Shown in pieces: positions 3,600 to 63,335 of a stretch of 63,343 nt of DNA (its first letter is position 1; each line of letters begins with the position of its first letter). This DNA is from Patescibacteria group bacterium. GTDB taxonomy: Bacteria > Patescibacteriota > Patescibacteriia > Patescibacteriales > WJLG01. The stretch is from the NCBI GenBank assembly GCA_028716485.1, contig JAQUPS010000007.1:1-63343 (forward strand), given 5' to 3'. The notes beneath the pieces are model-generated. The model was not told the DNA's origin, did not search any database, and was given only the letters and a program-made list of their open reading frames with translations. Made by a program: the position numbers and the translations under genes.

Positions 3600-3610
3600 A
3601 AATCATATAT

Positions 3611-3664
3611 CAGGTAACATGTAGCATGTCCATGAAAAACCTGTTACTTGTTACTTGATACCTG
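3611..3664. repeat. Heptamer-arm hairpin (GTAACAT/CAGGTAAC family)
   Basis: Arms are caggtaacatgtagcatgt and ctgttacttgttacttgatacctg. It fills the spacer 3600-3671. Confidence 0.65.
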
Positions 3665-3671
3665 CCGCATG

Positions 3672-4700
3672 TTATTTTCCGCTCGAACTGCCGACAGTTC
3701 CCGCCGCGCCGCTGCCAGCCGTGGAAGTTCCGGACTCGCTGGCGCCCTTAACCGATCCGGAATCGATATTAGCAATAATTTTTCCCACCTGATCCAGCAT
3801 ATCCTTGGCTCCGGAAAAATCTTTAATATCAAAAGATTGAGTCGCCTTATCCAAAGTGGTATTGATATTTTCGCTCGCGCTAACCGTGGAAGAAGCCACG
3901 TGAGCCACCGCTGAACCGGGGCCGCTGCTGGAGGAAAGACTTTGCGGCGCGCCTAAAGCGGAAGTGGCTCTGCCAATGCCGACATTATCTTTCGAACCGG
4001 TGTTGGGATCATAAAATTGCAATCCTTTACTGTCTTTGCCTGATTCGACGCCGTAGACTTTGCCGCTGGCGTCTTTTTGGATATCGCCGATACCGACCTT
4101 GGCATTATCATCGCCGGCCGCCAGATTGCTGCTGGTGTTATTAACCGCCGATCCGGACGAGTTAAGAGCTAAATTTTCTTGCCGCATTTGATTGATTTCC
4201 GAATATCTTTCTTTTACCGTATTTATTTCCTGCTTGAAATTTTGCGCCAGCTGTTCCGCCTTCTTCTGATTTCCCGCAACATTGAAATTCGGGTCGGATA
4301 ATACCTCGGTTATTTCCATCGCGTGGATGCTGGCCAGCTTCATATCCAATTTCGCTTTATCCTCCTGATTGAAAGTCATCGCCAGCTGAATTTTTTCTTT
4401 CCAAACTTTGGCGATATACAAAGTGTCGCCTGGCTTGGAATTCTTAGCCGCCAGCGCGCCGAAGCTGCCGCCGGTCAAGATGATCATCAGGCAGATAACG
4501 GCCCAGGCAGTAGAGGGCAAAAAGGAAAAAAAGTTTTTAAAATCACAGGCCATCGCTTCGAACAGGCTGACTTTGACTTCTTGACCCACGGAATTGGAAA
4601 TTTGCGCCAACAAAAGATCCCGGGTTTCCTGTTTCCAGGAAGACTCGGGTTTAACATCTTTCAAAATATTCAGCTTAGCGATCAAATCTTTATCATTCAT
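3672..4700 (-). CDS. Single-pass membrane protein, putative anti-sigma factor (DUF5667-like)
   Basis: Lies directly downstream of the ECF sigma gene. It has an N-terminal cytoplasmic segment, one TM helix (AWAVICLMIILTGGSFGALAA) and a coiled, S/G-rich exterior. ATG at 4698-4700 (MNDKDLIAKL) is preferred; a GTG at 4733 is the alternative start. Confidence 0.6.
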   Translation of the reverse strand: MNDKDLIAKLNILKDVKPESSWKQETRDLLLAQISNSVGQEVKVSLFEAMACDFKNFFSFLPSTAWAVICLMIILTGGSFGALAAKNSKPGDTLYIAKVWKEKIQLAMTFNQEDKAKLDMKLASIHAMEITEVLSDPNFNVAGNQKKAEQLAQNFKQEINTVKERYSEINQMRQENLALNSSGSAVNNTSSNLAAGDDNAKVGIGDIQKDASGKVYGVESGKDSKGLQFYDPNTGSKDNVGIGRATSALGAPQSLSSSSGPGSAVAHVASSTVSASENINTTLDKATQSFDIKDFSGAKDMLDQVGKIIANIDSGSVKGASESGTSTAGSGAAGTVGSSSGK

Positions 4701-6025: not shown

Positions 6026-6063
6026 TCTTGTATTTTTATTATATACAAGCTAATTTAATATAC

Positions 6064-6089
6064 TTTAGTCCACAATATCGTGGACTAAA
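6064..6089. promoter_or_regulatory. Operator-like site 3 (perfect palindrome)
   Basis: TTTAGTCCAC-aatatc-GTGGACTAAA, perfect 10-bp arms, about 80 nt upstream of ATG 6169. Confidence 0.55.
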
Positions 6090-6168
6090 GTCAACCATTT
6101 TAATATTTTTTGAACGCAAAACGTTACGTTCCTACCATTTATATCTCCTGACTTCTTCTTTAATCTTT

Positions 6169-6672
6169 ATGTCTGATTTTTATCAAATACTTAAACGCGA
6201 GATTGAGCCGAATAATAGTGCTAAAACTGCATCGGCGAGGCATAATAAACGTTTTAGTGTTGAAAAACAGCCTGTGGACAACTTAATATTAGAAGGGGAT
6301 TTGCCTTCCGGAGAAAATATCAAATCAATGCCCAGGGTGATAAAAAAAAGACTGGCCAATTCAAAAAAAGGAGGTAAATCGACCGCCAGAAACATTCACC
6401 GAAAAAAAACAAAAGATGATTCGGATTTTTTATCCCTTGAACCGGCCAATCCGATCTGGCTGACCATGGCGGAAACCGCCAAGCTGGGCGGCGTGCAAAA
6501 ACGCACCATCAAACGGGCGCTAAGATCGGGATTCCTTAAATACCGTATCATCGAGAGCCGTTATCAGGTTGATCTGCGCTCAGCGCTCTTGTTCCTTTTT
6601 TCCCGGAAAAAACTCTGGAACAAGCTGAACGAATCCGGCATCGGACAATATGTGGGAAAATGGAAAAATTAA
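6169..6672 (+). CDS. DNA-binding protein with C-terminal excisionase/MerR-like HTH
   Basis: ATG at 6169 (MSDFYQILKRE) is preferred over the track start at 6028, which runs through AT-rich operator DNA. The C-terminal segment WLTMAETAKLGGVQKRTIKRALRSGFLKYRI resembles HTH_17/Xis-type domains. One of only two plus-strand CDS called; the other is the low-confidence small ORF at 7767-7898. Confidence 0.6.
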   Translation: MSDFYQILKREIEPNNSAKTASARHNKRFSVEKQPVDNLILEGDLPSGENIKSMPRVIKKRLANSKKGGKSTARNIHRKKTKDDSDFLSLEPANPIWLTMAETAKLGGVQKRTIKRALRSGFLKYRIIESRYQVDLRSALLFLFSRKKLWNKLNESGIGQYVGKWKN

Positions 6673-28848: not shown

Positions 28849-28939
28849 GTATCAAGTATCATATAACATCTCTTTCTCACCGGCTTATTTCCATTGAAAT
28901 GCTACCTGTTACTTGTTACCTGCTATCTGTTTTACTCGT
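28849..28939. repeat. Heptamer-arm hairpin (GTAACAT family)
   Basis: catgaaacatgtatcaagtatcatataacat faces atgctacctgttacttgttacctgctatctg. It overlaps the rplP stop. Confidence 0.65.
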
Positions 28940-29342
28940 TCGCCTTGACAAATCTCGATGTCACCGGCAATTTGTCACCGGCGAATTTCATCCCTTCTTT
29001 GGCTTCCGCTTCAGTAACGCCCTCGATTTCGAACATCACCATGCCAGGCTTGACATTGCAGACATAATGGTCGACCGAACCTTTGCCTTTACCCATCGGC
29101 AGTTCGCCGCCTTTAGCCGTAACCGGTTTAGCCGGGAAGATGCGGCAAAAAATTCTGCCGCCTTTCTTGATATATCTGGTCAAAACGCGTCTCGCTGCTT
29201 CAATTTGTCTCGCCGTCACCCAGCAATTTTCCAAAGATTTAAGACCGTAACTGCCAAAACTAACCCTCAGGCCGCTGGTGGCCTTGCCGCCTCTTTTTCC
29301 CTTATGGGACTTGCGATATTTAGTTTTTCTGGGCATCAACAT
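28932..29342 (-). CDS. rplP: 50S ribosomal protein L16
   Basis: MLMPRKTKYRKSHKGKRGG start at 29342; the track start at 29369 is longer. Confidence 0.95.
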   Translation of the reverse strand: MLMPRKTKYRKSHKGKRGGKATSGLRVSFGSYGLKSLENCWVTARQIEAARRVLTRYIKKGGRIFCRIFPAKPVTAKGGELPMGKGKGSVDHYVCNVKPGMVMFEIEGVTEAEAKEGMKFAGDKLPVTSRFVKANE

Positions 29343-29358
29343 AGATTGGTATTTGGTA

Positions 29359-29420
29359 TCAGGTAACAAGTAGCATGTAGCATAATTTTTAAAAAATATT
29401 ACCTGCTACTTGTTACCTGA
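29359..29420. repeat. Hairpin with perfect 17-bp stem (CAGGTAAC family)
   Basis: TCAGGTAACAAGTAGCA (29359-29375) is the exact reverse complement of 29404-29420. Confidence 0.9.
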
Positions 29421-50569: not shown

Positions 50570-52000
50570 TTACGTGTTACATGTTACGAGATTTTTTATT
50601 TCTTCTCTGGCGACTTCTCGGTCATCCCAAGGAATTTTTTCGCCATTGGCCATCATCATCAATTGCTCGCTCCCCTTGCCGCTGATTAAAACCAAATCCC
50701 CTTCTTCAGCGATGGAAATCGCTTTGCGGATTGCTTCGCGGCGGTCGGGAATTTTAAATAAATCAAAATTTACTTTTTTACCGGCAGTTTCCGCGCCAGC
50801 GCCAATTTGTTCGATAATCAAAATCGGATCATCATCATAGGGATCTTCATTAGTGATAATCACGATATCGGCGCGTTTGCCAGCCAGCAAACCGAGTTTT
50901 GGCCGCCTCGCCACATCGCGACCGCCGCCGGCAGAACCCAGGACGTTGATGATGCGGTTATGCGGAAATTTTTCAATCGTATCATAAAGCTTGCCGAGCG
51001 AATTGGGTTCAAAAGCATAATCAACGATAACCGTGAATGGCTGGCCTTTATCGATTTTTTCCATCCGGCCGGCAATGCCTTTGACGCTGTTCAGCCCGGC
51101 AATGATTTTTTCAATATTTTTTTCAGCTAAGCGCGCCACGCAAGCGGCGGCCATGGCGTTGGCGGCATTAAATTCACCCAATAAAGATAATTGGATTTTT
51201 TTGCCAAACGCCTGGAAAGAAACGCCTTGTTCTTCGGTTTTGATTTCACTGTATTTTTCAATCTGCAAATTTTCCGGTAAGTTTTCTGCAAGTAAATCGA
51301 TTTTATCTCTGGTCGTGAAGCCGATTTTTTCTTCCGCCCAAAAAGATAAAAAGTAAGCGGCATTTTCGTCATCAATGTTGGCGATGATCGTTTTCTTGAT
51401 GCGATTCAGGTCAAGTTTTTTCAAACCGCTCTTGGATCTGCATACCTTAAATTTGTCGTCCACATATTGAAGGCTGCAGTTTTTCAAATGCTCGAATAAT
51501 TTTCCTTTAGCTTTTTTATAATTTTCAAATCCGCCGTGCGATTCGATATGTTCGGGAAAAAGTCCGGTAAAAATCAGCCAATCGTAATTGATAAATTTGT
51601 GTCGGAATTGGCGGATGCCTTCGGAAGTCGTTTCGACAATCGCGATCTGACAGCCGTTCTTCGCCATTTTCGCCAGCAAGCCTTGCAGAAAAAATCTTCC
51701 TACCATCGTCATTCTTTTATCATTCAACCATTCTTTTTCGCCATCATTAAAAATCGCGGTGGAAGTAAGGCCGACTTTAAACCCGCACTCTTTCAATGTC
51801 CGCAACAATAAATACGAAGTTGTCGTTTTACCAATGGTGCCAGTCACGCCTATAACAATCATTTTCTCGGCCGGAAAACTGTAATATAAAGCCGCCGACC
51901 AGGATAATAAATAATGGTAAGCGGGCACCGCGGCCTTGAATAATTTTTTGGGGATTAATTTTTTGAGGAAAGAAAATAATTTATCCATATATTCATACAA
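50570..52000 (-). CDS. murE: Mur ligase family protein, likely UDP-MurNAc-tripeptide synthetase (MurE-like)
   Basis: P-loop is VIGVTGTIGKTTTS, with central and C-terminal Mur ligase motifs (DYAFEPNS, GKGSEQ). Which amino acid it adds cannot be told from the sequence. Confidence 0.8.
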   Translation of the reverse strand: MYEYMDKLFSFLKKLIPKKLFKAAVPAYHYLLSWSAALYYSFPAEKMIVIGVTGTIGKTTTSYLLLRTLKECGFKVGLTSTAIFNDGEKEWLNDKRMTMVGRFFLQGLLAKMAKNGCQIAIVETTSEGIRQFRHKFINYDWLIFTGLFPEHIESHGGFENYKKAKGKLFEHLKNCSLQYVDDKFKVCRSKSGLKKLDLNRIKKTIIANIDDENAAYFLSFWAEEKIGFTTRDKIDLLAENLPENLQIEKYSEIKTEEQGVSFQAFGKKIQLSLLGEFNAANAMAAACVARLAEKNIEKIIAGLNSVKGIAGRMEKIDKGQPFTVIVDYAFEPNSLGKLYDTIEKFPHNRIINVLGSAGGGRDVARRPKLGLLAGKRADIVIITNEDPYDDDPILIIEQIGAGAETAGKKVNFDLFKIPDRREAIRKAISIAEEGDLVLISGKGSEQLMMMANGEKIPWDDREVAREEIKNLVTCNT

Positions 52001-52023
52001 TAACAGAAAAAAAGCGCTTAGGC

Positions 52024-52057
52024 AAAAAAATTCCTCCGCTGTTGATTGCGGAGGAAT
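52024..52057 (-). terminator. Terminator after the 86-aa ORF
   Basis: ATTCCTCCGC (52030-52039) pairs with GCGGAGGAAT (52048-52057). A T7 run follows on the minus strand. Confidence 0.75.
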
Positions 52058-52067
52058 TGCGCTCTGT

Positions 52068-52328
52068 TTAAGAAAAATTTCGGACGACGAATTTCTCGAT
52101 AACCTTGATTATTTCCAGATCTTCTTTGGAAACGTCACAGAACGGGCACTTAACGATTATTTTCACCATTTCTTCCGCTTCAGCTTCGGCCGCGCCTCCC
52201 TTAAGAATATTCCTTACACATTTCCCAACCTCCAATGTGGCCGCCGCACGAAGAGATTCTTCTTCAATCCTGGAAATTGCGCTTATGAATAAAACAACTT
52301 CCGCTTTATCAATCGACTTTCTCCGCAT
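52068..52328 (-). CDS. Hypothetical protein
   Basis: 86-aa ORF followed by a strong terminator hairpin. No motif recognised. Confidence 0.5.
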   Translation of the reverse strand: MRRKSIDKAEVVLFISAISRIEEESLRAAATLEVGKCVRNILKGGAAEAEAEEMVKIIVKCPFCDVSKEDLEIIKVIEKFVVRNFS

Positions 52329-52404
52329 CCGATACTCCTTTGATTAATCGTTTAAAGTACACTAACCGTATTATAGCGCAATATAGCACGTCATCATATA
52401 TTTG

Positions 52405-52614
52405 TCAATCTTTCCAGGCAACCTTTCCGCGCCTTTTAATGAAATTTTCAATCGAACGATCGTAGCTTTTTTCTTCCGCAGTCGTAAAATAACAAGCCGG
52501 CAATTCCTGATTCTGGCGATGATAAGCGACACATTCACAGCAACGCCCTTTGCGCTCGCAGCTTTCGTAAGTGCAAGGGCAATCTTCTAAATTCTTTTTT
52601 ATCCGGCATTCCAT
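52405..52614 (-). CDS. Small cysteine-rich protein (DUF6485-like)
   Basis: 69 aa with [21 protein letters not shown] ... PACYF, recognised from memory as a DUF6485-type pattern. Confidence 0.55.
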
Positions 52615-52659
52615 ATATACAATTACAAATTACGAATTAAAAATTACAAATGATTAAAT

Positions 52660-53700
52660 TTAAAATTTTGCCAATCTTCTTGCGGTTCGCAAAATTCGAT
52701 AGATGCCATAATTGATTCTATTATAAACTACGTCGAAAGTTCCGGGATAATTTATTTCTTGGCCGCCGAAGCCGCGCTTAAAACGGGTCACGCCCGGCCA
52801 TTTTTTCTCATCGATGCCGAAAAAATCATAAAATTTATAGCCGCCGGCTTTGGCGCGCCTGATCAATTCCCATTGCAATAAATATGGCGCCATCACTTCG
52901 CGATTTTCGTCAGAGGAAGCGCCAAAAAGATAAGTGGCGGTATCGCCAAAAAAAGCGAAAATGCCTGCGCAAAGAATCTTATCTTCATATTTATCTCCGC
53001 TTTCGCCAAGGCTATGGCGGACGAAGGCAAAAAATAATTTAAAATTTTCCGGCGCGGTTTGCAGAAGTTTTTCATAATAATCTTTATCGTGCGAAGTGAA
53101 CCCGTCGCGGCCGGAAGTTTTCTTCATTAAATTCCAAAATTCTTCAAAACTATTTCCCGGAGCTTCTGATATTTTCACTCCTTTCTTTTCCGCCAAGCGG
53201 ATATTATATCTCGTTTTCTGATGCATCGCCGATAACAATTCTTCCTCGCTTTTAGACAAATCAAGAACGATTGTTTTTGAAGGTTGAATATCAAGGGATT
53301 TTCGTATTTCGTATTTCGTATTTCGTATTTCGATTTGTTTCGGCTCGAACCGCAGAAAAATTGCATCCTCCTTATCTGCAATCTTTTTTATTTCATCAAG
53401 AAAAAATTGAAGATTGAAAATTGAAGATTGAAAATTTATTATCGGTCCTCTCGGGCAATAAAAATAATTTATTCCGCCTACGCCAAGGCTTCGGCGGACG
53501 CGATCCCCCGGCAGGGATTTTTTCACCAACGTGGCGGCGGCGATAAGTTCGCCGTTTTCTTCCACGCCTATCCTTATTACTTTGCCCTCGACTTTTTCCT
53601 GGAATTCTCCCCATTCCCACGATTGCAAAAATTCGGCGTGCTCTTGCGCGCTGACAAAATCGTTTAATTTATTCTTATTTTTTATTTCAATTAATTGCAT
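52660..53700 (-). CDS. FemAB-family peptidoglycan interpeptide-bridge aminoacyltransferase (FemX/MurM-like)
   Basis: Contains FLQSWEWGEFQ, YCPRGP and LLQWELIRRAKAGGYKFYDFFGI. Holds in-frame repeat-derived segments (see findings). Confidence 0.85.
   Translation of the reverse strand: MQLIEIKNKNKLNDFVSAQEHAEFLQSWEWGEFQEKVEGKVIRIGVEENGELIAAATLVKKSLPGDRVRRSLGVGGINYFYCPRGPIINFQSSIFNLQFFLDEIKKIADKEDAIFLRFEPKQIEIRNTKYEIRKSLDIQPSKTIVLDLSKSEEELLSAMHQKTRYNIRLAEKKGVKISEAPGNSFEEFWNLMKKTSGRDGFTSHDKDYYEKLLQTAPENFKLFFAFVRHSLGESGDKYEDKILCAGIFAFFGDTATYLFGASSDENREVMAPYLLQWELIRRAKAGGYKFYDFFGIDEKKWPGVTRFKRGFGGQEINYPGTFDVVYNRINYGIYRILRTARRLAKF
52996..53021. repeat. 26-nt mini-palindrome inside the femX-like CDS, copy 1
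   Basis: TCCGCT-ttcgccaaggctat-GGCGGA encodes RHSLGESG in frame. Confidence 0.7.
53299..53336. repeat. TCGTATT heptamer x4 inside the femX-like CDS
   Basis: ttttcgtatttcgtatttcgtatttcgtatttcgattt encodes [13 protein letters not shown] in frame. Confidence 0.85.
53407..53434. repeat. 14-mer tandem (TTGAAGATTGAAAA x2) inside the femX-like CDS
   Basis: Encodes NFQSSIFNLQF in frame. Confidence 0.75.
53473..53498. repeat. 26-nt mini-palindrome inside the femX-like CDS, copy 2
   Basis: TCCGCC-tacgccaaggcttc-GGCGGA encodes RRSLGVGG in frame. Confidence 0.7.
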
Positions 53701-53705
53701 TTAGC

Positions 53706-54278
53706 TTATTTTATATTTTTCAATGCCTCTCTGATTCGCTTGCCGCTATCGGTGATGGATTTATCGACTTTGGACAAGGCTTCGCGGGCTTGCTGAATAG
53801 AATAACCGAGAGAAACCAAAGCGTCGATTTCGTCGCCGCGCAAACCAACGGAAGAAATCGCGCCAGCGGCCGGCGCGAGCGCGCCGACCTTATCGCGCAA
53901 ATCAAGAATCACCCGTTCGGCTGTTTTTTTGCCCACGCCGGAAACTTTGGTCAGCAAATTCGTATCGCCTTCGGCAATGGCATTTTTAATTTCTTCCACG
54001 CCGGCGATCGCCATAATTCCCAAACCGGATTTCGGGCCGATGCCGGAAACCGACAATAGCATTTCGAACATCGCCAATTTTTCATAAGTGGTGAAACCGT
54101 ACAAATCCAGCGCGTCTTCCCTGATATATTGATGAGTGAATAATTCCAGCTCATCGCCGTTCTTGGCTTCGGCCGCCAGACTTTCATTGACGAAAATCTT
54201 ATAACCGATGTCGTGCGCGGCCAAGATAATAAAATTATTTCCCTTCTTGATAATTTTACCTTTTAAAAAAGATATCAT
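53706..54278 (-). CDS. ruvA: Holliday junction DNA helicase RuvA
   Basis: Contains MISFLKGKI and two HhH motifs (LLSVSGIGPKSGLGI, LTKVSGVGKKTAERV). Confidence 0.95.
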   Translation of the reverse strand: MISFLKGKIIKKGNNFIILAAHDIGYKIFVNESLAAEAKNGDELELFTHQYIREDALDLYGFTTYEKLAMFEMLLSVSGIGPKSGLGIMAIAGVEEIKNAIAEGDTNLLTKVSGVGKKTAERVILDLRDKVGALAPAAGAISSVGLRGDEIDALVSLGYSIQQAREALSKVDKSITDSGKRIREALKNIK

Positions 54279-54281
54279 ATT

Positions 54282-55193
54282 TTATATTTTTAATCCGCGC
54301 AAAGCGGCAATGCGATCTTCAACAGGGGGATGAGTCATAAATAATTTTGCCATAAAGCCAACCTTGCCATCGGCGCCTTTGAGGGGCGAGATGATATAAA
54401 GGTGGGCGGTGGCGCGATTAGCAACTTCCAATTTTGCCGGATCGGCGGAAATTTTTTCCAAGGCGCTGACCAGGCCTTCGGGGTAGCGGGTCAGCAAAGC
54501 GCCGTCGGCGTCGGCCTTGAATTCGCGCTTGCGGGAAATCGCCAATTGCATCAGTGTGGCAAAAATCGGCGCTAAAATCGCCAAAACTATGGCGATAACG
54601 AGCATTATCAATTGCAATTGTCCGCCCTCGCTGTCGTTGCTGCGGCGGCGGCGTCCGCCGAAAAAAGACCAGCGCATATACCAGTCGGCCAGCAAAACCA
54701 CGACGCCGACCAAAACCGTCACGACAGTAGAAAGCAGAATATCGCGATTACCGATGTGCGAAAGCTCATGCGCGATCACGCCTTCCAATTCTGATTTTTC
54801 CAATTTGGCCAACAAGCCGCTGGTAACGGCGACAACCGCGTGCTGGGCATCGCGGCCTGTGGCAAAAGCGTTCGGGGCGCTATCTTCTATAATATATAGG
54901 CGCGGCACGGGCAAGCCGGCGGTGATGCAGAGATTTTCCACGATATGATAAAGTTCGCGCGCGCTTTCATGATCAACCTCATGGGCGTTGGACATCGCTA
55001 AAACAATCTTATCGCTCCACCAATAACTGACGAAACTGGAAATAATGCTAAAACCGACGGCGATATACAAAATCTCCGGCGCGTTCATCGCCTGGGAAAA
55101 AACCCAGCCGATGCCGATGACCGCGGCAAAAAATATGGTCATCAACAGCCAAGTTTTGCGCGCATTGGAATCAGAGTCGGTATATAAAGTCAT
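54282..55193 (-). CDS. htpX: Zinc metalloprotease HtpX (M48)
   Basis: Contains HELSHIGNRD plus TM helices. Confidence 0.93.
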   Translation of the reverse strand: MTLYTDSDSNARKTWLLMTIFFAAVIGIGWVFSQAMNAPEILYIAVGFSIISSFVSYWWSDKIVLAMSNAHEVDHESARELYHIVENLCITAGLPVPRLYIIEDSAPNAFATGRDAQHAVVAVTSGLLAKLEKSELEGVIAHELSHIGNRDILLSTVVTVLVGVVVLLADWYMRWSFFGGRRRRSNDSEGGQLQLIMLVIAIVLAILAPIFATLMQLAISRKREFKADADGALLTRYPEGLVSALEKISADPAKLEVANRATAHLYIISPLKGADGKVGFMAKLFMTHPPVEDRIAALRGLKI

Positions 55194-55196
55194 AAC

Positions 55197-55297
55197 AAAA
55201 ATCTCAAATCACAATTTTAAATTTTAAAATAAGTCAAAAATCTTAATATTTAAATTTTTATTTTTAAATTTATTTTAAAATTTTGATTTTGGATTTT
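55197..55297. repeat. AT-rich palindromic repeat, AAATCTCAAAT family, copy 3
   Basis: aaaaatctcaaatcacaattttaaattttaaaataagtcaaaaatc..., between lemA and htpX. Confidence 0.75.
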
Positions 55298-55856
55298 AAA
55301 ATTTAACCTGCACCGGCGCTTTCTCGTCTTCGGCGATTTGGAAGAATTCATAAGCCTTGAATTTAAGCAGGCCGTTAATGACATTGGTCGGAAAAACTTG
55401 CAGCGAGGTGTTGAAGTCGCGGACATTGCCGTTGTAGAAACGGCGAGAAGCCATAATCTTGTCTTCAGTGTCGGTAAGCTCGCGCTGTAATTCCAAAAAG
55501 TTTTGGTTGGCTTTCAAATCCGGATAAGCTTCAGCCAGAGCAAAGACCGATTTCAAGGCGCCACTTAGCATATTTTCCGCTTCGCCTTTGGCGCCGGACG
55601 CTCCATCAGTGACACTCATCGCGCGATTGCGGGCATTGATGACGTTTTCCAAAGTTGTTTTTTCGTGCACGGCATAACCTTTAACCGTTTCCACTAAATT
55701 CGGGATGAGGTCATAGCGGCGCTTTAATTGGACATTGATGTCGCTCCAAGCTTCATCGGTGCGATTTTTGCCGCGGATCAAGCCGTTGTACATGGCGATT
55801 ATCCAGAGCGCCAAAAGAACGATGACGATGAGGATAATCCAAAGTGTCGCGTTCAT
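55296..55856 (-). CDS. lemA: LemA family protein
   Basis: N-terminal TM helix and DEAWSDINVQLKRRYDLIPNLVETVKGY. Confidence 0.9.
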   Translation of the reverse strand: MNATLWIILIVIVLLALWIIAMYNGLIRGKNRTDEAWSDINVQLKRRYDLIPNLVETVKGYAVHEKTTLENVINARNRAMSVTDGASGAKGEAENMLSGALKSVFALAEAYPDLKANQNFLELQRELTDTEDKIMASRRFYNGNVRDFNTSLQVFPTNVINGLLKFKAYEFFQIAEDEKAPVQVKF

Positions 55857-55865
55857 AGATTTGTT

Positions 55866-56000
55866 GAAATTTTTAATTTTGTAATTTTTAAATTTTTAAA
55901 AAAATTTTAATGAATAATTTTTAAACCGATAAACTGCTGATTTAAAAATTAAAAATTATGATTTCTTTAAAAATTATGAAATTAAAAATTAAAAAATTAT
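55866..56000. repeat. ~110-bp AT-rich palindromic repeat, copy 3
   Basis: Its left block is identical to copy 2. Its right block atgatttctttaaaaattatgaaattaaaaatt matches copy 1. Confidence 0.8.
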
Positions 56001-56010
56001 TTATTATGTT

Positions 56011-56124
56011 TTAATTATTTTTGTCCTCTTTATCTTTTTTTGAATCCTCAATCACTCCGGCAACTATCGCGCCGACGACCAGCAAAATAAAAACAATAAT
56101 GCCAATTCCCAACATACTTTTCAT
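56011..56124 (-). CDS. Possible 37-aa single-TM small protein, start overlapping the ileS stop (ATGA)
   Basis: My translation is MKSMLGIGIIVFILLVVGAIVAGVIEDSKKDKEDKNN. Its ATG at 56122-56124 overlaps the ileS TGA at 56121-56123. It is below the ORF-track size cutoff. Confidence 0.4.
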   Translation of the reverse strand: MKSMLGIGIIVFILLVVGAIVAGVIEDSKKDKEDKNN

Positions 56125-59100
56125 ATTTTTTTAATTTTTATAATCAATTTCTCTCCGTTGGCTTCAACCGCTTTGCCGCCATCGGTGGCGCCGATGATTA
56201 TTTTGTCGGCCAAAACATCTTTTTTCAAATCGGCTTCAAAAGTTTTGACGGCATTTTTTACTGCTTCGCTTTCAGTGGCAATCGTTAGAATAATTTTATC
56301 ATTGATAGTTAAATCGGCGTTCTTGCGTTCGGCATTAATGAATCTAACCAGCTCACGCTTCAAACCCTCGGCGATCAATTCCGGCGTCATCGTTATATCC
56401 AATTCTACGGAGATTTCTCCCCCCCCTTCTTCGGTGATTATCTCTTTGACGTTCAGCTCATCTTTGAGCAAATCAAAATAAATAATTTTTAATTTTGCAT
56501 TTTTAATTTTTAATTGAGCGAGAGGCTGGCGGACTTTTATCTCCGCTTCGTCGCGCTTGGCCAAGCCCATCTCCACGACTTTGCGCGCCAAAGCCATCTC
56601 CTCAATAATTTCTTTTTGCTCGTCATCCTTTTCATAATTAACCCATTCTTCTAGATGCACCGAGGCTTCGGGATTAGCAAAATTATTGCCGGTGACTTTT
56701 TGCCATAATTGTTCGGCGATGAACGGCGTGAACGGCGCCATAACCTTGGCCAAATCGGTCAGAACCAAACGAGTAGTCGCCAGCGCGGATTTTTTGTCTT
56801 CGCCTTCATCTTTAAATCTATCTCTGCTCCTCCTTAAATACCAAGTGGAAAAATCATCGATGAACTGGGCAATCGGACGCGTCGCGCGCGGCAGATCGTA
56901 TTTTTTCATCCCCTCGCTCACTTCAGAAACTAACTGATTTAAGCGGGCAATAATCCATTTATCCAAAATATTCTTCGGTTCATAATCTGCCTGGAAACCC
57001 ACCCCGTCTCGCGAGGCGCGAGCCACCCCTCCCGCGGAGGGGAATTCGTACATCTCGTAGAATTTATAAACATTCCAGAGAATCATATTCACTTTGCGCA
57101 GGCAATCGGCCACGGCTTTTTCGGAAAAATTCAGATTTTCCGCGGTCATCACCGGCGAAGTCAAAAGATAATAGCGCAAAGCGTCGGCGCCGTATTTTTC
57201 CAAAATGATTTCCGGATCAGGATAATTTTTCAGCCGCTTGGACATTTTCTTGCCGTCTTCGGCTAAAACTATTCCATTGACGATGACATTTTTGTAGGCA
57301 AAATTATTGCGGATGCCGGCGGCCAAGGCGTGCAAATAATAAAACCAGGTGCGAGTTTGGTCAATGCCTTCGGCGATGAATTCAGCCGGAAAATTATGTT
57401 CGAATCTTTCCTTATTCTCGAACGGATAATGCATCTGCGCGTACGGCATCGAACCGGATTCGAACCAGCAATCCAAAACATCGCTCACTCGTTTCATTTC
57501 GCCGGGACAGACATCGCATTGCAAAGCGATATTATCGACAGAATCTTTATGCAAATCGATTTCTTTCTTGGTGGAATTATTGACATAGACGATCTTGAAC
57601 TCGCCTTTATGAGTATGGTTCGGCCCATAAAGCGACAGACCGGCTTCATGTTTGGTCCTGCCTCTCAATATGCTGATCAGGTCATCAATAGGATCGGAAT
57701 GCGAAACGATTATAATAGTTTTGCCGCTATTTTTTTCCAAAGTTCCGAGCAGCCATTGATACATCCGCTCGCCGACTTCGGTTTGGGTTTCGCCTGTTCC
57801 GCCGACGCGGATATCCATCATCTCTTCAGGCGCGGCAGCCAGATATTTTTGGCGCGATTCATCATGCTTAGCCAGCTCGTCGCGATTTTTATCATTCCAA
57901 TCTCCCAGCGCGATCTCTCTTAATTCATCAGCTGCAGCGAATTCCAGCCCCAAAATCTTGCCGATTATTTCTGCGCTTTCCCTGGTGCGCAAAACCGGCG
58001 AGGCATAAAAAACGATCTTATCTTTTTGTTCATCGGCAAGTTCACTTTTCAATTTTTCCGCGGTGGCGGTTATCTGCGCCCGTCCTTTTTCGGTTAAATT
58101 ATATTTATCCTGGCCGGAATAAATTATGTTGGCCGCGTTGCTTTCCGCTTCGCCGTGGCGGACTAAAATCAATTTGGTCAGCTGGCCGTTGGCATGGCGA
58201 TAAAATTCTTCCAGCGACCCGATGACTTTTTTGGCGCCGCAGGGGCATTGCCAGATCGGGATGCAGGAAGCCCAGAAACGCTGGCGGGAAATCGACCAGT
58301 CGCGCGCGCCTTCCAGCCATTTGCCGAAACGGCCGGCCTTGATATGCTCCGGCGACCAGTTGATCGCCTCGGCCAATTCCAGCATCCGCGGTTTTATTTT
58401 GGCGATTTTGACGAACCAAGAAGAAGTGGCGTAATTGATGAGCGGCGTGTCGCAGCGCCAGCAGAACGGATAGCTATGCTCGTATTTTTCCTTGGCGAAT
58501 AATAAATCTTTACCGGCCAGATATTTGATGATGGCGACGTCGGTTGATTGCACATCTTCGATCGGCTTCACGTGCAGGCCGGTGAACTCGCCCATTTCCT
58601 TTTTGAAAGTTCCGTCCATGCCGACGTGCTGGACAAAGGGCAAATTATAATCGCGGCCAAGATTCATATCAGCTTCGCCGAAAGCCGGCGCGATATGCAC
58701 GATGCCGGTGCCGTCCTCGGTAGTCACGAATTCGCCATGATAAATCTTCCAGCCATTTTCGCGGTTAGCCAATGTTTCATCCTTCGCATAAAAATCAAAC
58801 AGCGGCTTATATTTTTTGCCGATCAACTCTGCCCCCTTAAATTCTCTAATTATTTCAAATTCCTTATCTCTTAAAACGTCATTAATTCTTTCTTTCGCCA
58901 AAATAATTCTTAATTCTTCATTCCCTGCCTTGCCGGCAGGCAGGTTAATTCTTAATTCGCAATAGTCAATCTCTTTCCCGACCGCCAGCGCGACATTTCC
59001 CGGCAAAGTCCATGGCGTGGTCGTCCAAGCTAAAACATAAACACCGGGCTCGTCGACGAGTTCAAATTTTACGGTCACCGACAAATCTTTAACATCGCGA

Positions 59101-59702
59101 TAGCCTTCCGCCACTTCCGATTGCGACAAAGTCGTTTCACAGCGCGGACAAATATACATAGAGCGGTAATCCTGATAGATCAGATCGTTATCCCAAAGCT
59201 GTTTGAACGCCCACCAAACCGATTCCATATAAGACAAGTCCATAGTGCGATAAGGATTTTCCATATCCGCCCAGCGGCCCAGCCGGCGGATCGTTTTTTT
59301 CCATTCCTCGGTGAATTCAGCCGCCCGTTCGCGGCAAAGCGCGTTGAATTTAGCTACGCCGATTTTTTCCTCGATTTCTTTTTTGCTTTTGGTGCCCAAT
59401 TCTTTCTCGACGATATTCTCGATCGGCAAGCCGTGGCAATCCCAGCCCCAGCGGCGCGGAATCTGGTAGCCGTTCATCGTCCAAAAACGCGGCACCGCGT
59501 CTTTCATCAAGCTGGCGACCAGATGGCCGTAATGCGGCGTGCCGGTAGCGAACGGCGGACCATCGTAAAAAACATACTCGCCGCGCGGAGCTTCTTTGGC
59601 AATGGATTTTTCGAAAATCTTATTCTTTTCCCAAAACGCCAAAACTTCCTCCTCCATCCCGACAAAGATATTTTTCTTCTCCTGATTATTTTTTTGAACC
59701 AT
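56121..59702 (-). CDS. ileS: Isoleucyl-tRNA synthetase with an inserted histidine-phosphatase domain
   Basis: 1193 aa. HIGH is PHYGH (aa 56-60) and KMSKS is KMSKR (aa 819-823). Also WSISRQRFW and DCWFESGSMPYAQ. Aa ~510-712 carry the RHG histidine-phosphatase motifs. Confidence 0.95.
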   Translation of the reverse strand: MVQKNNQEKKNIFVGMEEEVLAFWEKNKIFEKSIAKEAPRGEYVFYDGPPFATGTPHYGHLVASLMKDAVPRFWTMNGYQIPRRWGWDCHGLPIENIVEKELGTKSKKEIEEKIGVAKFNALCRERAAEFTEEWKKTIRRLGRWADMENPYRTMDLSYMESVWWAFKQLWDNDLIYQDYRSMYICPRCETTLSQSEVAEGYRDVKDLSVTVKFELVDEPGVYVLAWTTTPWTLPGNVALAVGKEIDYCELRINLPAGKAGNEELRIILAKERINDVLRDKEFEIIREFKGAELIGKKYKPLFDFYAKDETLANRENGWKIYHGEFVTTEDGTGIVHIAPAFGEADMNLGRDYNLPFVQHVGMDGTFKKEMGEFTGLHVKPIEDVQSTDVAIIKYLAGKDLLFAKEKYEHSYPFCWRCDTPLINYATSSWFVKIAKIKPRMLELAEAINWSPEHIKAGRFGKWLEGARDWSISRQRFWASCIPIWQCPCGAKKVIGSLEEFYRHANGQLTKLILVRHGEAESNAANIIYSGQDKYNLTEKGRAQITATAEKLKSELADEQKDKIVFYASPVLRTRESAEIIGKILGLEFAAADELREIALGDWNDKNRDELAKHDESRQKYLAAAPEEMMDIRVGGTGETQTEVGERMYQWLLGTLEKNSGKTIIIVSHSDPIDDLISILRGRTKHEAGLSLYGPNHTHKGEFKIVYVNNSTKKEIDLHKDSVDNIALQCDVCPGEMKRVSDVLDCWFESGSMPYAQMHYPFENKERFEHNFPAEFIAEGIDQTRTWFYYLHALAAGIRNNFAYKNVIVNGIVLAEDGKKMSKRLKNYPDPEIILEKYGADALRYYLLTSPVMTAENLNFSEKAVADCLRKVNMILWNVYKFYEMYEFPSAGGVARASRDGVGFQADYEPKNILDKWIIARLNQLVSEVSEGMKKYDLPRATRPIAQFIDDFSTWYLRRSRDRFKDEGEDKKSALATTRLVLTDLAKVMAPFTPFIAEQLWQKVTGNNFANPEASVHLEEWVNYEKDDEQKEIIEEMALARKVVEMGLAKRDEAEIKVRQPLAQLKIKNAKLKIIYFDLLKDELNVKEIITEEGGGEISVELDITMTPELIAEGLKRELVRFINAERKNADLTINDKIILTIATESEAVKNAVKTFEADLKKDVLADKIIIGATDGGKAVEANGEKLIIKIKKI
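56995..57046. repeat. Relative of the 57-nt element inside the ileS CDS (opposite orientation)
   Basis: aaacccacccc-gtCTCGCGaggCGCGAGc-cacccctcccgcggaggggaatt shares both ends with the reverse complement of 27446-27502 but has a different central hairpin. It encodes EFPSAGGVARASRDGVGFQ. Confidence 0.65.
58905..58958. repeat. GC hairpin flanked by a 12-bp direct repeat inside the ileS CDS
   Basis: AATTCTTAATTC (58905-58916) recurs at 58947-58958 around CCTGCC-ttgcc-GGCAGG. It encodes ELRI-NLPAGKAGNE-ELRI. Confidence 0.75.
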
Positions 59703-59745
59703 AGTTATTCATCATTCATGATTTTTTATTCAAATTTACACTATA

Positions 59746-59774
59746 ATATTACCTTTTTTCAGTCTGTTTGTCAA
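59746..59774 (-). promoter_or_regulatory. Candidate ileS promoter TTGACA-17-TAATAT
   Basis: On the minus strand, TTGACA is at 59769-59774 and TAATAT at 59746-59751, just downstream of the terminator at 59811-59843. Confidence 0.6.
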
Positions 59775-59810
59775 AACAAAAAACAACCGTTGCTGGATAG
59801 TATTTTTATC

Positions 59811-59843
59811 AAAAAAATAGGCGCAAATTTTATAATTTGCGCC
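59811..59843 (-). terminator. Terminator after the secreted-protein cassette
   Basis: GGCGCAAATT (59820-59829) pairs with AATTTGCGCC (59834-59843). A T7 run follows on the minus strand. Confidence 0.75.
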
Positions 59844-59875
59844 CAATACTTTATACCGTTTATATTTTAAACGGG

Positions 59876-60379
59876 TTAACGTGTATAATAATGCACAATA
59901 AGAGATGCATAGGGACAGTAGGTGTAATAATGTTTCATTAGGCCATAATTACCCCACTTTGAAACAACATAGCTATTATAGTCCATTATACCGGAGTGAT
60001 CTCCGTTTGTATAAGAAATCTTATAGCCATAAAGCGGAAAATACCCGTCATGATAACTGCCATCAAGCCAATAGGCATCATCGCCAGGATGGTTCATCCA
60101 TCTGTCGTTGCTTATGGACTGATAATACCATGCGTATGAATGGCAGTTATATTTCCGCGTGGGGTTTCTCAATATTACCGCGTTAGGATAATTCTGCTGG
60201 GTCCAAGCTATCGCAGCGTTAATTTGCGCGACTGTAAGCTCGTACGTCTGCGTCGTGGTACTTACCACCGAGCCGTTGGGAGTTGTTACCGTGGAAGGAT
60301 AATCCGCTGATACCGCGCCATTTAAACTAAAAACGGCGGCCAACACAAGAAATGCCTTAAACACAATTTTCGTCTTCAC
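59876..60379 (-). CDS. Secreted Tyr/Trp-rich protein, possible papain-fold (NlpC/CHAP-like) Cys/His hydrolase
   Basis: GTG start with GAAGGGG 8 nt upstream. The signal peptide is MKTKIVFKAFLVLAAVFSLNGAVSA. YNCHSYAW ... GDHSGI is a Cys-then-His spacing pattern. The fold assignment is a guess. Confidence 0.6.
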   Translation of the reverse strand: MKTKIVFKAFLVLAAVFSLNGAVSADYPSTVTTPNGSVVSTTTQTYELTVAQINAAIAWTQQNYPNAVILRNPTRKYNCHSYAWYYQSISNDRWMNHPGDDAYWLDGSYHDGYFPLYGYKISYTNGDHSGIMDYNSYVVSKWGNYGLMKHYYTYCPYASLIVHYYTR

Positions 60380-60393
60380 TTATTACCCCTTCT

Positions 60394-61152
60394 CTATTTG
60401 GATATGAAATTTTCAGACTGAACGATGATTTGATCCGCATTGTTGGATAAATCAGCTTCATTGTCACCGACAATTACTTGTTTTCCGTTGATTTGCAAAC
60501 CGACACCCCTTCTTTCCAGCACCCTCTTCATGATCAAAATTGTCGGCTCTGAATCAAGAAAATTATAAATGTCTGGGCGATTCTGTTTGAGACGAAGATT
60601 ACTTAAACATTCTTTAACCAATATTTTCTCTTCGTCTTCGGACATACTTGCCCGAACACTGCTTTGAGCCAACAGCATCTCAATAAATGCTTGCTCAAAA
60701 TAATGAGTAGAGCTGGCCTTTTTGGAATCAATATCGTTTATATCCTGTGCTATTTCCTTATTGACCAAACGATACTGCGCCAAAAGTTCAATTCCAGCAT
60801 CTTCCCGTTTTAAAAGTTCTTGTAAACCATCAAAGCCAGAAATTACGGCTTCCAGGCCTTTTTGCCTGTCATCATACACCATCATGTCGCCATACATAGG
60901 ATAATTTAAGCAAGTTTCAACTAAAGCCCTTGTAGACATATTTTTAAGGACATCGGCTGGAATTTGTGTTGCCGCGAGCATTTCATCGTGGCCGACGAAT
61001 TTTTTCCACGCATCCGTGCCCGGTTTTATTGGAAAATCATAAGCGCGATCATTGGCGAACTTTACATTTCTCTCGCCACCAATAGCCATACTGACAAAAA
61101 CCAATACAAGAACGGCAACAAAAAATAGACTTAGAAGTTTTAGCTTTCTCAT
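60394..61152 (-). CDS. Secreted or membrane-anchored hypothetical protein
   Basis: 252 aa with N-terminal MRKLKLLSLFFVAVLVLVFVSMAIG. No motif recognised. Sits 14 nt upstream of the next ORF. Confidence 0.65.
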   Translation of the reverse strand: MRKLKLLSLFFVAVLVLVFVSMAIGGERNVKFANDRAYDFPIKPGTDAWKKFVGHDEMLAATQIPADVLKNMSTRALVETCLNYPMYGDMMVYDDRQKGLEAVISGFDGLQELLKREDAGIELLAQYRLVNKEIAQDINDIDSKKASSTHYFEQAFIEMLLAQSSVRASMSEDEEKILVKECLSNLRLKQNRPDIYNFLDSEPTILIMKRVLERRGVGLQINGKQVIVGDNEADLSNNADQIIVQSENFISK

Positions 61153-61326
61153 ATTAACCTTTCTTAATTTTTACCCAATTAACGGGTAAAGTTAAAGACA
61201 TTTTTACACACCTTTTGTCTGCGATTATTATATCACTTTTTTCAAAGAACAAACGTTTAAAAAACATTAACTCGAATTCATTTTCCCTCCTTAATTAAAT
61301 CATGTTGTTAATTGGTAATGTTAAAA

Positions 61327-61356
61327 ATTATAGCAAAAAAAAATAATCCTTGTCAA
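61327..61356 (-). promoter_or_regulatory. Consensus promoter TTGACA-18-TATAAT for the secreted-protein cassette
   Basis: On the minus strand, TTGACA is at 61351-61356 and TATAAT at 61327-61332. A second extended -10 (TGATATAAT) lies at 61227-61235. Confidence 0.6.
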
Positions 61357-61379
61357 ATTAATTATTTTGTATTTTTGTA

Positions 61380-63335
61380 TTATTTTACCAAATTTAAATT
61401 AGTGCTCGTGGCGGTGGGATTTTTTTGCCGAGTAAAATAATATTGCAAAATATCATAGGCAACATTCAGAGAAATCTGGCTTCCCTCTTTGCCCTCCTCA
61501 ACCAAAACCGTCACCACGATTTCCGGTTTTTTATAGGGCGCGAAGCAAGTGAACCAGGCGTGCGGAGTTTCACCCGCCGCGCCCCATTGCGCCGTGCCGG
61601 TCTTGGCCGCCGCTTCCACGGGCAAGCTCTGCAATTTTGCCGCGCTGCCTGCCGTCACCGCCTGCCGCATCCCCTGACGCACCACTTCAATATTATAGCT
61701 ATCCACCATATTTTGCCGGATGATTTTCGGCTGAACCGGTGTGATGGTTTGATCATTATTAGTCAGAACTGCTTTGACCACCTGCGGCTGATAAAGCGTG
61801 CCGTGATTGGCAAAGACCGCCGTCCAATTGGCGTCTTGCAAGGGCGTTACCAATAAATCACCCTGCCCGATGGCCAAATGATAAGTATCGCCGATATACC
61901 ATTTTTCGCCGCGCACCTGTTCTTTCCAGGCTTTGCTCGGCACGAACCCCGGCGATTCATTGGGCAAATCGATTCCGGTTTCCATTCCCAAACCGAAAAG
62001 CAGCAGATATTTGGCAAGGCGGTCCACGCCCAAGCCGGCAAAATTTTCATAGCCGCCGCCGATCATGTAGAAAAAAGTATTGACCGACCAGGCCAGGGCT
62101 TTGCGCACGTCGGTAATCCCGTGTCCGCCAGCCAACCAATCGGGGAAAAACCATTGATTAACTTTCAGCCCGCCGGTGGAATTTACCGTGGTATGTTCGG
62201 AAATGATTTTTTCCTGCAGGGCGGCCGCGGCCACGACCATCTTTACCGTCGAACCGGACGGATATTCGCCGGAAATCGAACGGTCAAAAAGCGGATTGTC
62301 CGGAGCATTGGCAAGCTGGCTATATTCATCAGCTGTGATGCCGCGGGCGAAAACCGTATTGTCATAAGAAGGCAAGCTGATTAGCGTCAAAATTTCTCCG
62401 TTGTTCGGGTCCATTATCACCACTGCCGCTTTGCCGCCGATCTTGGATTCTTTCAAACGCCGCTGCAAAATCTCCTCGGCTTTTTTCTGCAAATCATAAT
62501 CAATGCTCAATTCCAAATCGCCGCCATTGACCGCCGGCTGTTCGCTGATAACTTTTTTTTCATTGCCCATGGCATCGACTTCGATTTTCGATACGCCGCT
62601 TTTACCTTTCAGCGCGCTTTCCCAGGAATTCTCCACCCCGGCCTTGCCGATATAATCGATCGGCGAATAATCCGGGCCGTATCTTTCCAAATCGCTGCCG
62701 CTTACCTTGCCGGTATAGCCTAAAACGTGAGAAAGCGACAAAACTCCGTCAGTGAGATATTCCCGGCGGTCTTTGGCGGACAGAATAACGCCGGGCATAT
62801 TTTCGGCCGACAGATAAAAAAGCATGGCCTTGTCATAATCAAGATTGTCGATAACAAAGATCGGCTGGGCGTAATTCGAAGAACCGGGAGCAAGTTTGGC
62901 GAGCTGATCACGCAAACCGTTGAGCAAAGTTTCCTTTTGCGCCGCGTCAGCGGGAAAAATAAGCGCGCCGGCCTTTTCCAAAATTTCATTTCTCTTTTCC
63001 GGATCAGCCGGCAATTCGGCCGGCAGAAGATATAAAATAAAATTGGCGGCATTGCGCACCAGCGGCCGGCCGGTCCGGTCGTAAATTATTCCCCGCTTGG
63101 CTTCGACGCGCTGCGTTCTGACGCTATTGCCTTCCGAGAGCGAAGAATAATAATCACCCCTGATGATTTGCAGCCAGGCAACGCGGCCGAGAAGCAAGCC
63201 GCCGAAAACGACGACAAAAATAATAAAATATTTAAGCCGGGAAAATTCAAAAGTCCGGCCGACCACCTCGCCGATTTTTCCGCTCGGAATAAATGAGCTC
63301 TCGATCCATTCGCGGAAATGAGAATATTTTTCCAA
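61380..63335 (-). CDS. mrdA: Penicillin-binding protein 2 (peptidoglycan D,D-transpeptidase)
   Basis: SxxK is SGSTVKM, SxN is WSVNT and KTG is KTGTAQ, with an N-terminal TM helix. The first in-window start is a TTG at 63335, and the true start could lie beyond the right edge. Confidence 0.9.
   Translation of the reverse strand: MEKYSHFREWIESSFIPSGKIGEVVGRTFEFSRLKYFIIFVVVFGGLLLGRVAWLQIIRGDYYSSLSEGNSVRTQRVEAKRGIIYDRTGRPLVRNAANFILYLLPAELPADPEKRNEILEKAGALIFPADAAQKETLLNGLRDQLAKLAPGSSNYAQPIFVIDNLDYDKAMLFYLSAENMPGVILSAKDRREYLTDGVLSLSHVLGYTGKVSGSDLERYGPDYSPIDYIGKAGVENSWESALKGKSGVSKIEVDAMGNEKKVISEQPAVNGGDLELSIDYDLQKKAEEILQRRLKESKIGGKAAVVIMDPNNGEILTLISLPSYDNTVFARGITADEYSQLANAPDNPLFDRSISGEYPSGSTVKMVVAAAALQEKIISEHTTVNSTGGLKVNQWFFPDWLAGGHGITDVRKALAWSVNTFFYMIGGGYENFAGLGVDRLAKYLLLFGLGMETGIDLPNESPGFVPSKAWKEQVRGEKWYIGDTYHLAIGQGDLLVTPLQDANWTAVFANHGTLYQPQVVKAVLTNNDQTITPVQPKIIRQNMVDSYNIEVVRQGMRQAVTAGSAAKLQSLPVEAAAKTGTAQWGAAGETPHAWFTCFAPYKKPEIVVTVLVEEGKEGSQISLNVAYDILQYYFTRQKNPTATSTNLNLVK

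Follow-up and report, generated by a model that had tools for sequence, protein, structure and literature searches.

The stretch of DNA analysed here (the window; 63,343 nucleotides of contig JAQUPS010000007.1, from a Patescibacteria group bacterium) carries on its minus strand, at 56121-59702, an ileS gene for a type-2 (eukaryote-like) isoleucyl-tRNA synthetase (IleRS) of 1193 aa, inside which a histidine phosphatase domain is nested. An initial annotation, made from the sequence alone, had proposed this in-frame domain insertion, and its description of the gene was borne out. The open reading frame (ORF) runs without stop or frameshift through all 1193 aa, the HIGH (PHYGH) and KMSKS (KMSKR) signatures and every other motif that it quoted are in their places, and the RHG triplet of the phosphatase falls exactly at 58152-58160. 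Pfam profiles revealed tRNA-synt_1 in two stretches flanking the insert (E 1.2e-129), alongside His_Phos_1, Anticodon_1 and DUF5915.

The synthetase was assigned to type 2 from curated profiles and structural matches. It passes the NCBIfam ileS equivalog TIGR00392 (875.5 bits against a cutoff of 621.4), possesses the type-2 C-terminal domain DUF5915 (PF19302; 67.9 bits, cutoff 27) and not IleRS1's zinc-binding domain, and has the IleRS2 structures 8c8v and 8c8u as its best matches in the PDB, with residues 17-506 aligning to 14-480 of the 8c8v chain and residues 714-1095 to 485-854. The N-terminal part (aa 1-506; 58185-59702, minus strand) thus aligned holds the first half of the catalytic HUP/Rossmann fold, connective polypeptide 1 (CP1) with the editing domain, and connective polypeptide 2 (CP2) up to its first Cys pair, while the C-terminal part (aa 714-1193 plus stop; 56121-57563, minus strand), delimited by Pfam, the 8c8v alignment and motifs, holds the rest of CP2, the second half of the catalytic fold, the anticodon-binding domain and the type-2 C-terminal domain. 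Both class I signatures are present (PHYGH at aa 56-60, nt 59523-59537; KMSKR at aa 819-823, nt 57234-57248), as are the editing motifs TTTPWT (aa 227, nt 59007-59024) and GTGIVH (aa 331, nt 58695-58712) in CP1, both of whose Cys pairs (CPRC and FCWRC) are intact, such that outside the insert the enzyme looks fully functional. The models for the mupirocin-resistance enzymes MupA and MupB were not reached by the window protein (720.8 and 704.8 bits against a cutoff of 1900), and this ileS is probably the organism's sole IleRS gene.

The insert lies in CP2, directly between the two Cys pairs of its zinc knuckles, QCPC upstream (aa 485-488; 58239-58250, minus strand) and QCDVC downstream (aa 728-732; 57507-57521, minus strand), both read from the sequence. 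This position follows from the limits of the HUP core in IleRS2, residues 40-168 and 513-632 in structure numbering (PMC10485003). Because the 8c8v alignment is collinear on both sides of the gap, some 207 residues stand in for a loop of about 4 residues, and the junctions read ANGQLTK/LILVRHG and NNSTKK/EIDLHK. The initial annotation had the location right at 57567-58178, but we redrew the boundaries to 57564-58184 (minus strand; aa 507-713, 207 aa with linkers) from the gap in the PDB alignment, an hmmsearch envelope of 507-711, the AlphaFold2 model and Foldseek. It had also been correct that a long segment separates the knuckle segments, whereas the spacing of a few tens of residues that it took to be usual was too short, as the anchor motifs around this site are 65-84 aa apart in insert-less relatives and 275 aa apart here.

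By profile, predicted fold and catalytic residues, the insert is a complete branch-1 histidine phosphatase domain, as initially annotated. The Pfam domain His_Phos_1 (PF00300) spans aa 511-684 (57651-58172, minus strand) at E 8.7e-32 and 110.8 bits against a cutoff of 21.7, and the excised segment scores 114.9 bits. AlphaFold2, run on aa ~455-795 with 20 homologs, gave a model whose confidence (pLDDT) is mostly >90 across the insert, which is thus predicted to form a confident fold of its own. Foldseek placed this model closest to PhoE (1h2e; E 2.7e-13, TM-score normalised to the target 0.78), with CobC, PspA, Rv3214 and glucosyl-3-phosphoglycerate phosphatase (GpgP) also matched, and a profile of the inserts against the PDB scored highest on PspA, a metal-independent phosphoserine phosphatase (127 bits), followed by PhoE (108), a riboflavin-pathway HFP (97) and CobC (93). 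Judged from these comparisons, the closest solved relatives of the inserts are compact small-molecule phosphatases and not the longer mutases. The motifs VRHGE (514-518), LRTRES (571-576), LREIALG (594-600) and VSHSD (666-670) supply a full catalytic set of R515, H516, N522, R572, E596 and H668.

Conservation of these residues was evaluated across relatives retrieved by similarity, the counts of which, here and below, describe the retrieved sequences and give neither background rates nor Patescibacteria-wide frequencies. Among copies at the same CP2 loop as in the window (site A), the Arg and His of the RHG motif (R515, H516 and G517; 58152-58160, minus strand), H516 being the predicted phospho-accepting nucleophile, are invariant in 146/146. 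The second phosphate-binding Arg (R572 in SPVLRTRES; 57987-57989, minus strand) and the second catalytic His (H668 in VSHSD; 57699-57701, minus strand) are each kept in 148/148, and the predicted general acid (E596 in LREIALGDW; 57915-57917, minus strand) is Glu in 129 of 148 and Asp in the other 19. In two alignments the catalytic set is invariant. The 314 domain copies collected in all show practically no variation in the nucleophile Arg-His, the second Arg or the second His, and have Glu or Asp as their acid, with a catalytic residue lost in a few copies elsewhere (E to A in P0007, and some copies in valyl-tRNA synthetase, ValRS).

A more specific identity was sought and rejected for the insert, because every curated model scored below its cutoff: dPGM (NF038349, 92.8 against 225 bits), CobC (TIGR03162, 78.5 against 162.9), PspA (NF045917, 65.8 against 350), SixA (TIGR00249, 31.2 against 74.5), GpmB (NF002901, 61.2 against 261) and the RNase H/acid phosphatase model NF005567, which was the second-best NCBIfam match (81.8 bits, cutoff 326). 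The substrate can thus not be read from homology. A homolog search by word index with the insert alone as query returned just 13 weak generic matches. An intein or other self-excising insert was likewise rejected, as there is no HINT fold and there are no splice-junction residues, and the phosphatase fold accounts for the entire insert; in other lineages where the junction reads PHN, the next residue is G, Q, E, R or K and never the C, S or T that an intein needs.

That the gene is an artefact, either a mis-assembly of ileS with a phosphatase gene or two genes read as one, can practically be dismissed. Nothing was found in its support beyond the metagenome type of the sequence, whereas the frame is continuous, the two halves of the IleRS are each complete and align collinearly to solved structures, and GC content is the same in insert (0.472) and flanks (0.471). 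Both junctions are moreover covered by a 1283-nt contig (P0001/L242) of an independent NCBI assembly, GCA_035505575.1, which is 92% identical to the window in the flanks, 67% in the insert and 77% over the junction-spanning segment, and the same junctions recur in dozens of other genomes. On these grounds chimerism and a two-gene reading were ruled out, and the initial call of a domain insertion holds. The contig, the closest relative of the window, was deposited as 'Candidatus Methylomirabilis sp.', and as its IleRS is plainly of Patescibacteria type this short contig has probably been mis-binned. Comparing window and contig, dN/dS is 0.19 in the insert and 0.048 in the flanks (dS ~1), from which it follows that the insert is under purifying selection in the window's own lineage while evolving 4-5x faster than the synthetase core.

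Going beyond what had been proposed for the single gene, the architecture is widespread in Patescibacteria data, occurring at several IleRS sites and in ValRS, and the phosphatase is also found in relatives as a separate gene coupled to ileS. A junction-spanning query retrieved about two dozen proteins combining PF00133 with PF00300 at 32-77% identity, with sources mostly named 'Patescibacteria group'; their public annotation is generic ('class I tRNA ligase family protein' or 'isoleucine--tRNA ligase'), and 'partial' status among them reflects short or frameshifted contigs, as in L001. In species-representative genomes, insert classes were read from the spacing of the anchors W.ISR.R.W and DCWFESG, which is 65-84 aa (most 68-72) in insert-less IleRS, 259-282 aa with one phosphatase domain (the class of the window) and 446-464 aa with two. 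The two-domain class occurs in Peregrinibacteria and Peribacteria, where the second Cys knuckle gives way to the additional domain (site B), and a third position lies after KMSKS (site C), where the copies precede Anticodon_1 (P0057, P0060 and P0141). In all full-length IleRS examined the nested domain is internal and never N-terminal.

When 1.84 billion cluster representatives were searched exhaustively by profile, 1,081 of them matched at E<=1e-30, and the best 150 of these, which were classified, comprised 99 IleRS (12 with two copies), 4 ValRS (two to four copies) and 47 free-standing proteins, 30 single and 17 tandem. The tandem proteins (for example P0158, P0202 and P0203) consist of two His_Phos_1 domains in ~410-430 aa. 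Combining this search with genome scans, ValRS with one to four His_Phos_1 domains were found in P0188, P0134 (four copies), P0216 and P0279 and at loci L162, L163, L164 and L172, the last four being species-level assemblies of which three carry labels of the candidate phyla radiation (CPR). The metagenome-assembled genomes (MAGs) hosting such ValRS are labelled Peribacteria, Komeilibacteria and, in two cases, just 'bacterium'. P0188 passes both curated valS cutoffs (849 against 704 and 767 against 612 bits), and one of its two phosphatase domains comes after DWCISRQIWWGH.IPVWY, the position homologous to the window's IleRS site; between the two domains lies an unannotated stretch of ~280 aa (about 635-915). 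Nesting of the phosphatase, at three loops of IleRS and as one to four copies within ValRS, is a recurrent Patescibacteria trait.

Other domains also enter these enzymes. The 1066-aa IleRS P0265 holds three foreign in-frame domains, namely an IS200/REP-type Y1 transposase-like domain at aa ~326-472 in the CP1/editing region, His_Phos_1 at site A (680-854) and a GNAT domain at 935-1063 after HFPFEN, which points to an unusual tolerance of whole-domain insertion in the loops of CPR IleRS. P0082, which had seemed to place another enzyme domain (PF02581) at site A, was rejected as a chimeric gene call without a site-A insert. Two Oscillospiraceae MAGs, L197 (4001-9899) and L216 (4001-9789), have ValRS matches of ~5.8 kb against the usual ~2.6 kb and no His_Phos domain, which could reflect a very large insertion, an intein or a split match.

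In many relatives the phosphatase is a gene of its own beside an IleRS gene. At locus L066, a 194-aa homolog (3444-4028) lies between argS and an insert-less ileS in the order argS, phosphatase, ileS, recO. Scanning genomes with a 7-sequence alignment of free-standing homologs gave 80 loci, nearly all of them labelled as Patescibacteria lineages or 'bacterium', and at 17 of these the match lay inside IleRS. Free-standing homologs in species-representative genomes are followed on the same strand by ileS, in its insert-less form, in 56/62 cases, whereas argS lies upstream in just 38/62, and with estimated start codons the distance from phosphatase stop to ileS start has a median of 1 nt, with overlap in 26/55 pairs and at most 50 nt in 51/55. 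The carriers of this upstream gene are Paceibacterota, Nealsonbacteria and related lineages, and the proteins form a Paceibacterota-type subfamily; among them is L158, from a MAG deposited as 'Candidatus Microsyncoccus archaeolyticus PMX.50', in which the split arrangement could be tested in cells if the organism is cultured. Free and nested forms are mutually nearest neighbours in ~1 case in 6, and this mixing indicates that the two states have interconverted several times. Gene pair and fusion together form a Rosetta-stone pattern, and phosphatase nested in or adjacent to IleRS suggests an undescribed partnership.

The window's own copy probably has a separate history. A neighbour-joining tree built on 932 core IleRS columns placed the window sequence among mostly insert-less enzymes (57-64% identity) labelled Falkowbacteria, Patescibacteria group and Moraniibacteriota, together with the insert-bearing L008 (65%). 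Window and L008 are nearly identical in their flanks and just 27% identical in their inserts, whose C-terminal ends also differ (...NNSTKKEIDLHKD against ...PIPHRNNYELDLHRPYID), while L038, L039 and L049 share the window's flank type, are equally close and have no insert. No other copy exceeds 38% identity to the window domain. A single ancient insertion followed by vertical descent is therefore not supported, since window and L008 sit among insert-less enzymes and differ in insert and junctions. The copy differs so strongly from all others that it is most simply read as a histidine phosphatase captured independently at this CP2 loop, or else as a case of very rapid divergence. That the same domain family arrived at the same loop from different sources argues for selection over accident, although the similarity-driven sampling gives no background rates.

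Taking these observations together, we favour, with moderate confidence, a single bifunctional chain in which a normal housekeeping type-2 IleRS bears at the tip of its CP2 knuckle, as a separate lobe, a catalytically competent phosphatase of the small-molecule type (PspA/PhoE/CobC) with a recurrent link to IleRS and ValRS in Patescibacteria. With phospho-His516 as the intermediate, E596 as the acid and R515, R572 and N522 binding phosphate, the phosphatase would hydrolyse a phosphomonoester, and it would work independently of the aminoacylation site. Its substrate is probably soluble and small, and not a tRNA held in the synthetic site, because most relatives make the phosphatase as a protein of its own, nested copies differ in placement and number, the characterised enzymes nearest to it are small-molecule phosphatases and the window copy is acidic (pI 5.6, net charge -6). 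Candidates would include nucleotides, phospho-amino acids, phosphoglycerate-type metabolites and pyrophosphate-like compounds, and the selected benefit may be obligatory one-to-one co-production or co-localisation with IleRS. As a possible extension, which we hold only tentatively, the histidine phosphatase could be a dedicated and hitherto unrecognised accessory of the two editing class Ia synthetases, IleRS and ValRS, in CPR bacteria, acting on something that the synthetase makes, binds or suffers and recruited repeatedly as a coupled gene or nested domain, its activity being required wherever these synthetases operate. The translation apparatus would then have a new module, whose candidate targets include a by-product or inhibitor that carries phosphate, the synthetase itself in phosphorylated form and a tRNA with a damaged end.

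Several observations weigh against the bifunctional reading with its IleRS link. The 63,343-nt window contains neither a free-standing His_Phos_1 copy nor the argS-ileS-recO synteny, and none of the specific equivalog cutoffs (dPGM, CobC, PspA, SixA, GpmB) is reached by the insert. A leave-out test used a hidden Markov model (HMM) for which the 62 operon-linked free-standing proteins were the sole input. On it the window domain scored 89 bits, a value that generic His_Phos_1 proteins also attain (median 63, maximum 102) and that lies far below the subfamily median of 262, such that the inference of an ileS-linked phosphatase reaches the window copy by analogy and not by established orthology; P0001 scored 76 bits, and P0002 (151) and P0003 (134) were intermediate. 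Conserved adjacency to ileS can also arise without a functional link, as with the neighbouring ribF and ileS in E. coli and related proteobacteria.

A neutral account would explain much of the same pattern, in that an unrelated housekeeping phosphatase that happened to lie next to ileS could have been dropped by rearrangement into permissive loops and retained there because small, drift-prone CPR populations offer no clean deletion, with the catalytic residues kept because the nested copy is the cell's sole source. The insertion sites are all surface loops with variable position and copy number, the same IleRS family accepts GNAT and transposase-like domains (P0265), the insert evolves faster than its flanks, its closest characterised relatives are general metabolic phosphatases, and IleRS hosts far outnumber ValRS hosts (99 against 4 among the best 150 of 1,081), as expected if proximity to ileS drives insertion. 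We nevertheless consider such hitch-hiking rather unlikely, as the phosphatase-ileS pair persists at a median of 1 nt in far more genomes than the argS neighbour does, domains of clearly different origin occupy the same loop in the window and L008, ValRS gained copies as well, one of them at the homologous site, and fusion by upstream read-through predicts an N-terminal domain where an internal one was always seen.

A macromolecular substrate was considered too, and the histidine phosphatase superfamily does include the protein phosphatases SixA, PGAM5 and Sts-1. The domain could remove an inhibitory phosphate from IleRS or ValRS, as an antidote to HipA-type kinases, or heal tRNA 3'-phosphate ends before charging. 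There is an analogy in the kinases HipA and HipT, which inactivate the class I synthetases GltX and TrpS by phosphorylation (PMC6581861, PMC8262856), tethering to the substrate would explain fusion specifically with IleRS and ValRS, and each of sites A, B and C borders on the KMSKS region and the catalytic fold's second half. This is nonetheless improbable, since IleRS and ValRS are not known to have a kinase partner or a phosphosite, structure and sequence match best to small-molecule enzymes that possess a cap subdomain and not to SixA-like open sites, an acidic window domain in a family without consistent positive charge is unfavourable for RNA binding, and up to four copies per protein with variable placement argue against a precise geometric role. 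Less probable still, and by a wide measure, is a pseudo-enzyme serving as structural spacer or ligand sensor; the fast evolution of the insert and the few copies lacking a catalytic residue are compatible with it, though nothing speaks for it specifically, and it is opposed by R, H, R and H being invariant with Glu or Asp as acid in all 148 site-A copies and by the full set in the window.

Comparison with known systems helps place the bifunctional IleRS. The Priestia megaterium IleRS2 (8c8v; PMC10485003) is collinear with the window enzyme outside the insert (728 bits), sharing HUP core, CP1 with editing domain, CP2 knuckles, anticodon-binding domain and type-2 C-terminal domain, but has only a ~4-residue loop (about 480-485) where the window has its 207-aa phosphatase. 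The PspA/iPSP1 of H. thermophilus (4ij5), PhoE of B. stearothermophilus (1h2e) and the alpha-ribazole phosphatase CobC (6nru, 6e4b) share fold (target TM ~0.78), size (~200 aa) and catalytic residues with the window domain, yet are free-standing and just 20-27% identical. The Paceibacterota phosphatase upstream of ileS has the superfamily, catalytic residues and IleRS partner in common with it and differs in being a separate polypeptide with its own synteny, on whose profile the window copy scores in the generic range. M. tuberculosis LysX, a LysRS fused to MprF, also joins a second catalytic domain to a synthetase, one that uses the aa-tRNA product, but it is an end-to-end fusion with another domain family. 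Another example of a synthetase with an added catalytic domain, again of a different family, is NCBIfam NF040702 'ileS_w_GNAT', to which the window protein does not belong (311.5 bits, cutoff 1999) and to which P0265, with phosphatase and GNAT together, provides a link. The Rv2228c-type RNase H/CobC-like acid phosphatase (NF005567) likewise fuses His_Phos_1 to a nucleic-acid enzyme, though terminally, not nested, and with a different partner.

The initial annotation had stated that no aminoacyl-tRNA synthetase with an embedded RHG phosphatase was described, which holds for the literature that we searched (IleRS or synthetase with histidine phosphatase, CPR synthetase insertions, and GNAT-IleRS). 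A 2026 preprint on 96,219 IleRS sequences annotates canonical domains alone and leaves the phosphatase unmentioned. Enzyme and domain are each known, and it is their nested combination and genomic partnership that appear undescribed. Few enzymes have been studied as intensively as the aminoacyl-tRNA synthetases, and new biology has emerged time and again from the domains that they have accreted (editing, tRNA-binding, signalling); here a nested phosphatase that looks catalytically intact is confined, in the sequence data used, to one large and poorly understood bacterial radiation, for which the trait can serve as a lineage marker. The coupled gene pair, three IleRS sites and ValRS copies lead to the testable hypothesis that IleRS/ValRS function in these organisms involves a phosphomonoester. 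In a class I synthetase the CP2 site is, in addition, naturally permissive for inserted domains and has been used repeatedly, which is of value for protein engineering.

The gene around which this discussion turns sits in a housekeeping context (rpoB, rpoC, rpsG, fusA, tuf, secY, aspS, ruvA and cell-wall genes) and is accordingly the organism's ordinary chromosomal ileS. Two ORFs directly upstream of it on the minus strand, 59876-60379 (167 aa) and 60394-61152 (252 aa), had no Pfam match. The former shows a hydrophobic leader at its N terminus and a high content of Tyr, His, Trp and Asn (...HYYTYCPYASLIVHYYTR), from which it looks like a small secreted protein. Also near ileS on the minus strand, at 50570-53700 and 61380-63335, are genes for a MurE-like Mur-ligase, a FemAB-family transferase and a PBP2-type transpeptidase; the FemAB family uses aminoacyl-tRNA to build peptidoglycan cross-bridges and is a notable presence in a reduced CPR genome. 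Nearly all convincing genes of the window, including rpoBC, the cluster of ribosomal-protein, EF-G, EF-Tu and secY genes, aspS and ileS, lie on the minus strand, with a few unannotated plus-strand ORFs such as 6028-6672 and 28899-29366. GC skew is mostly negative across 54000-62000, the part profiled, which together with the strand bias is consistent with a single long co-oriented replichore segment.

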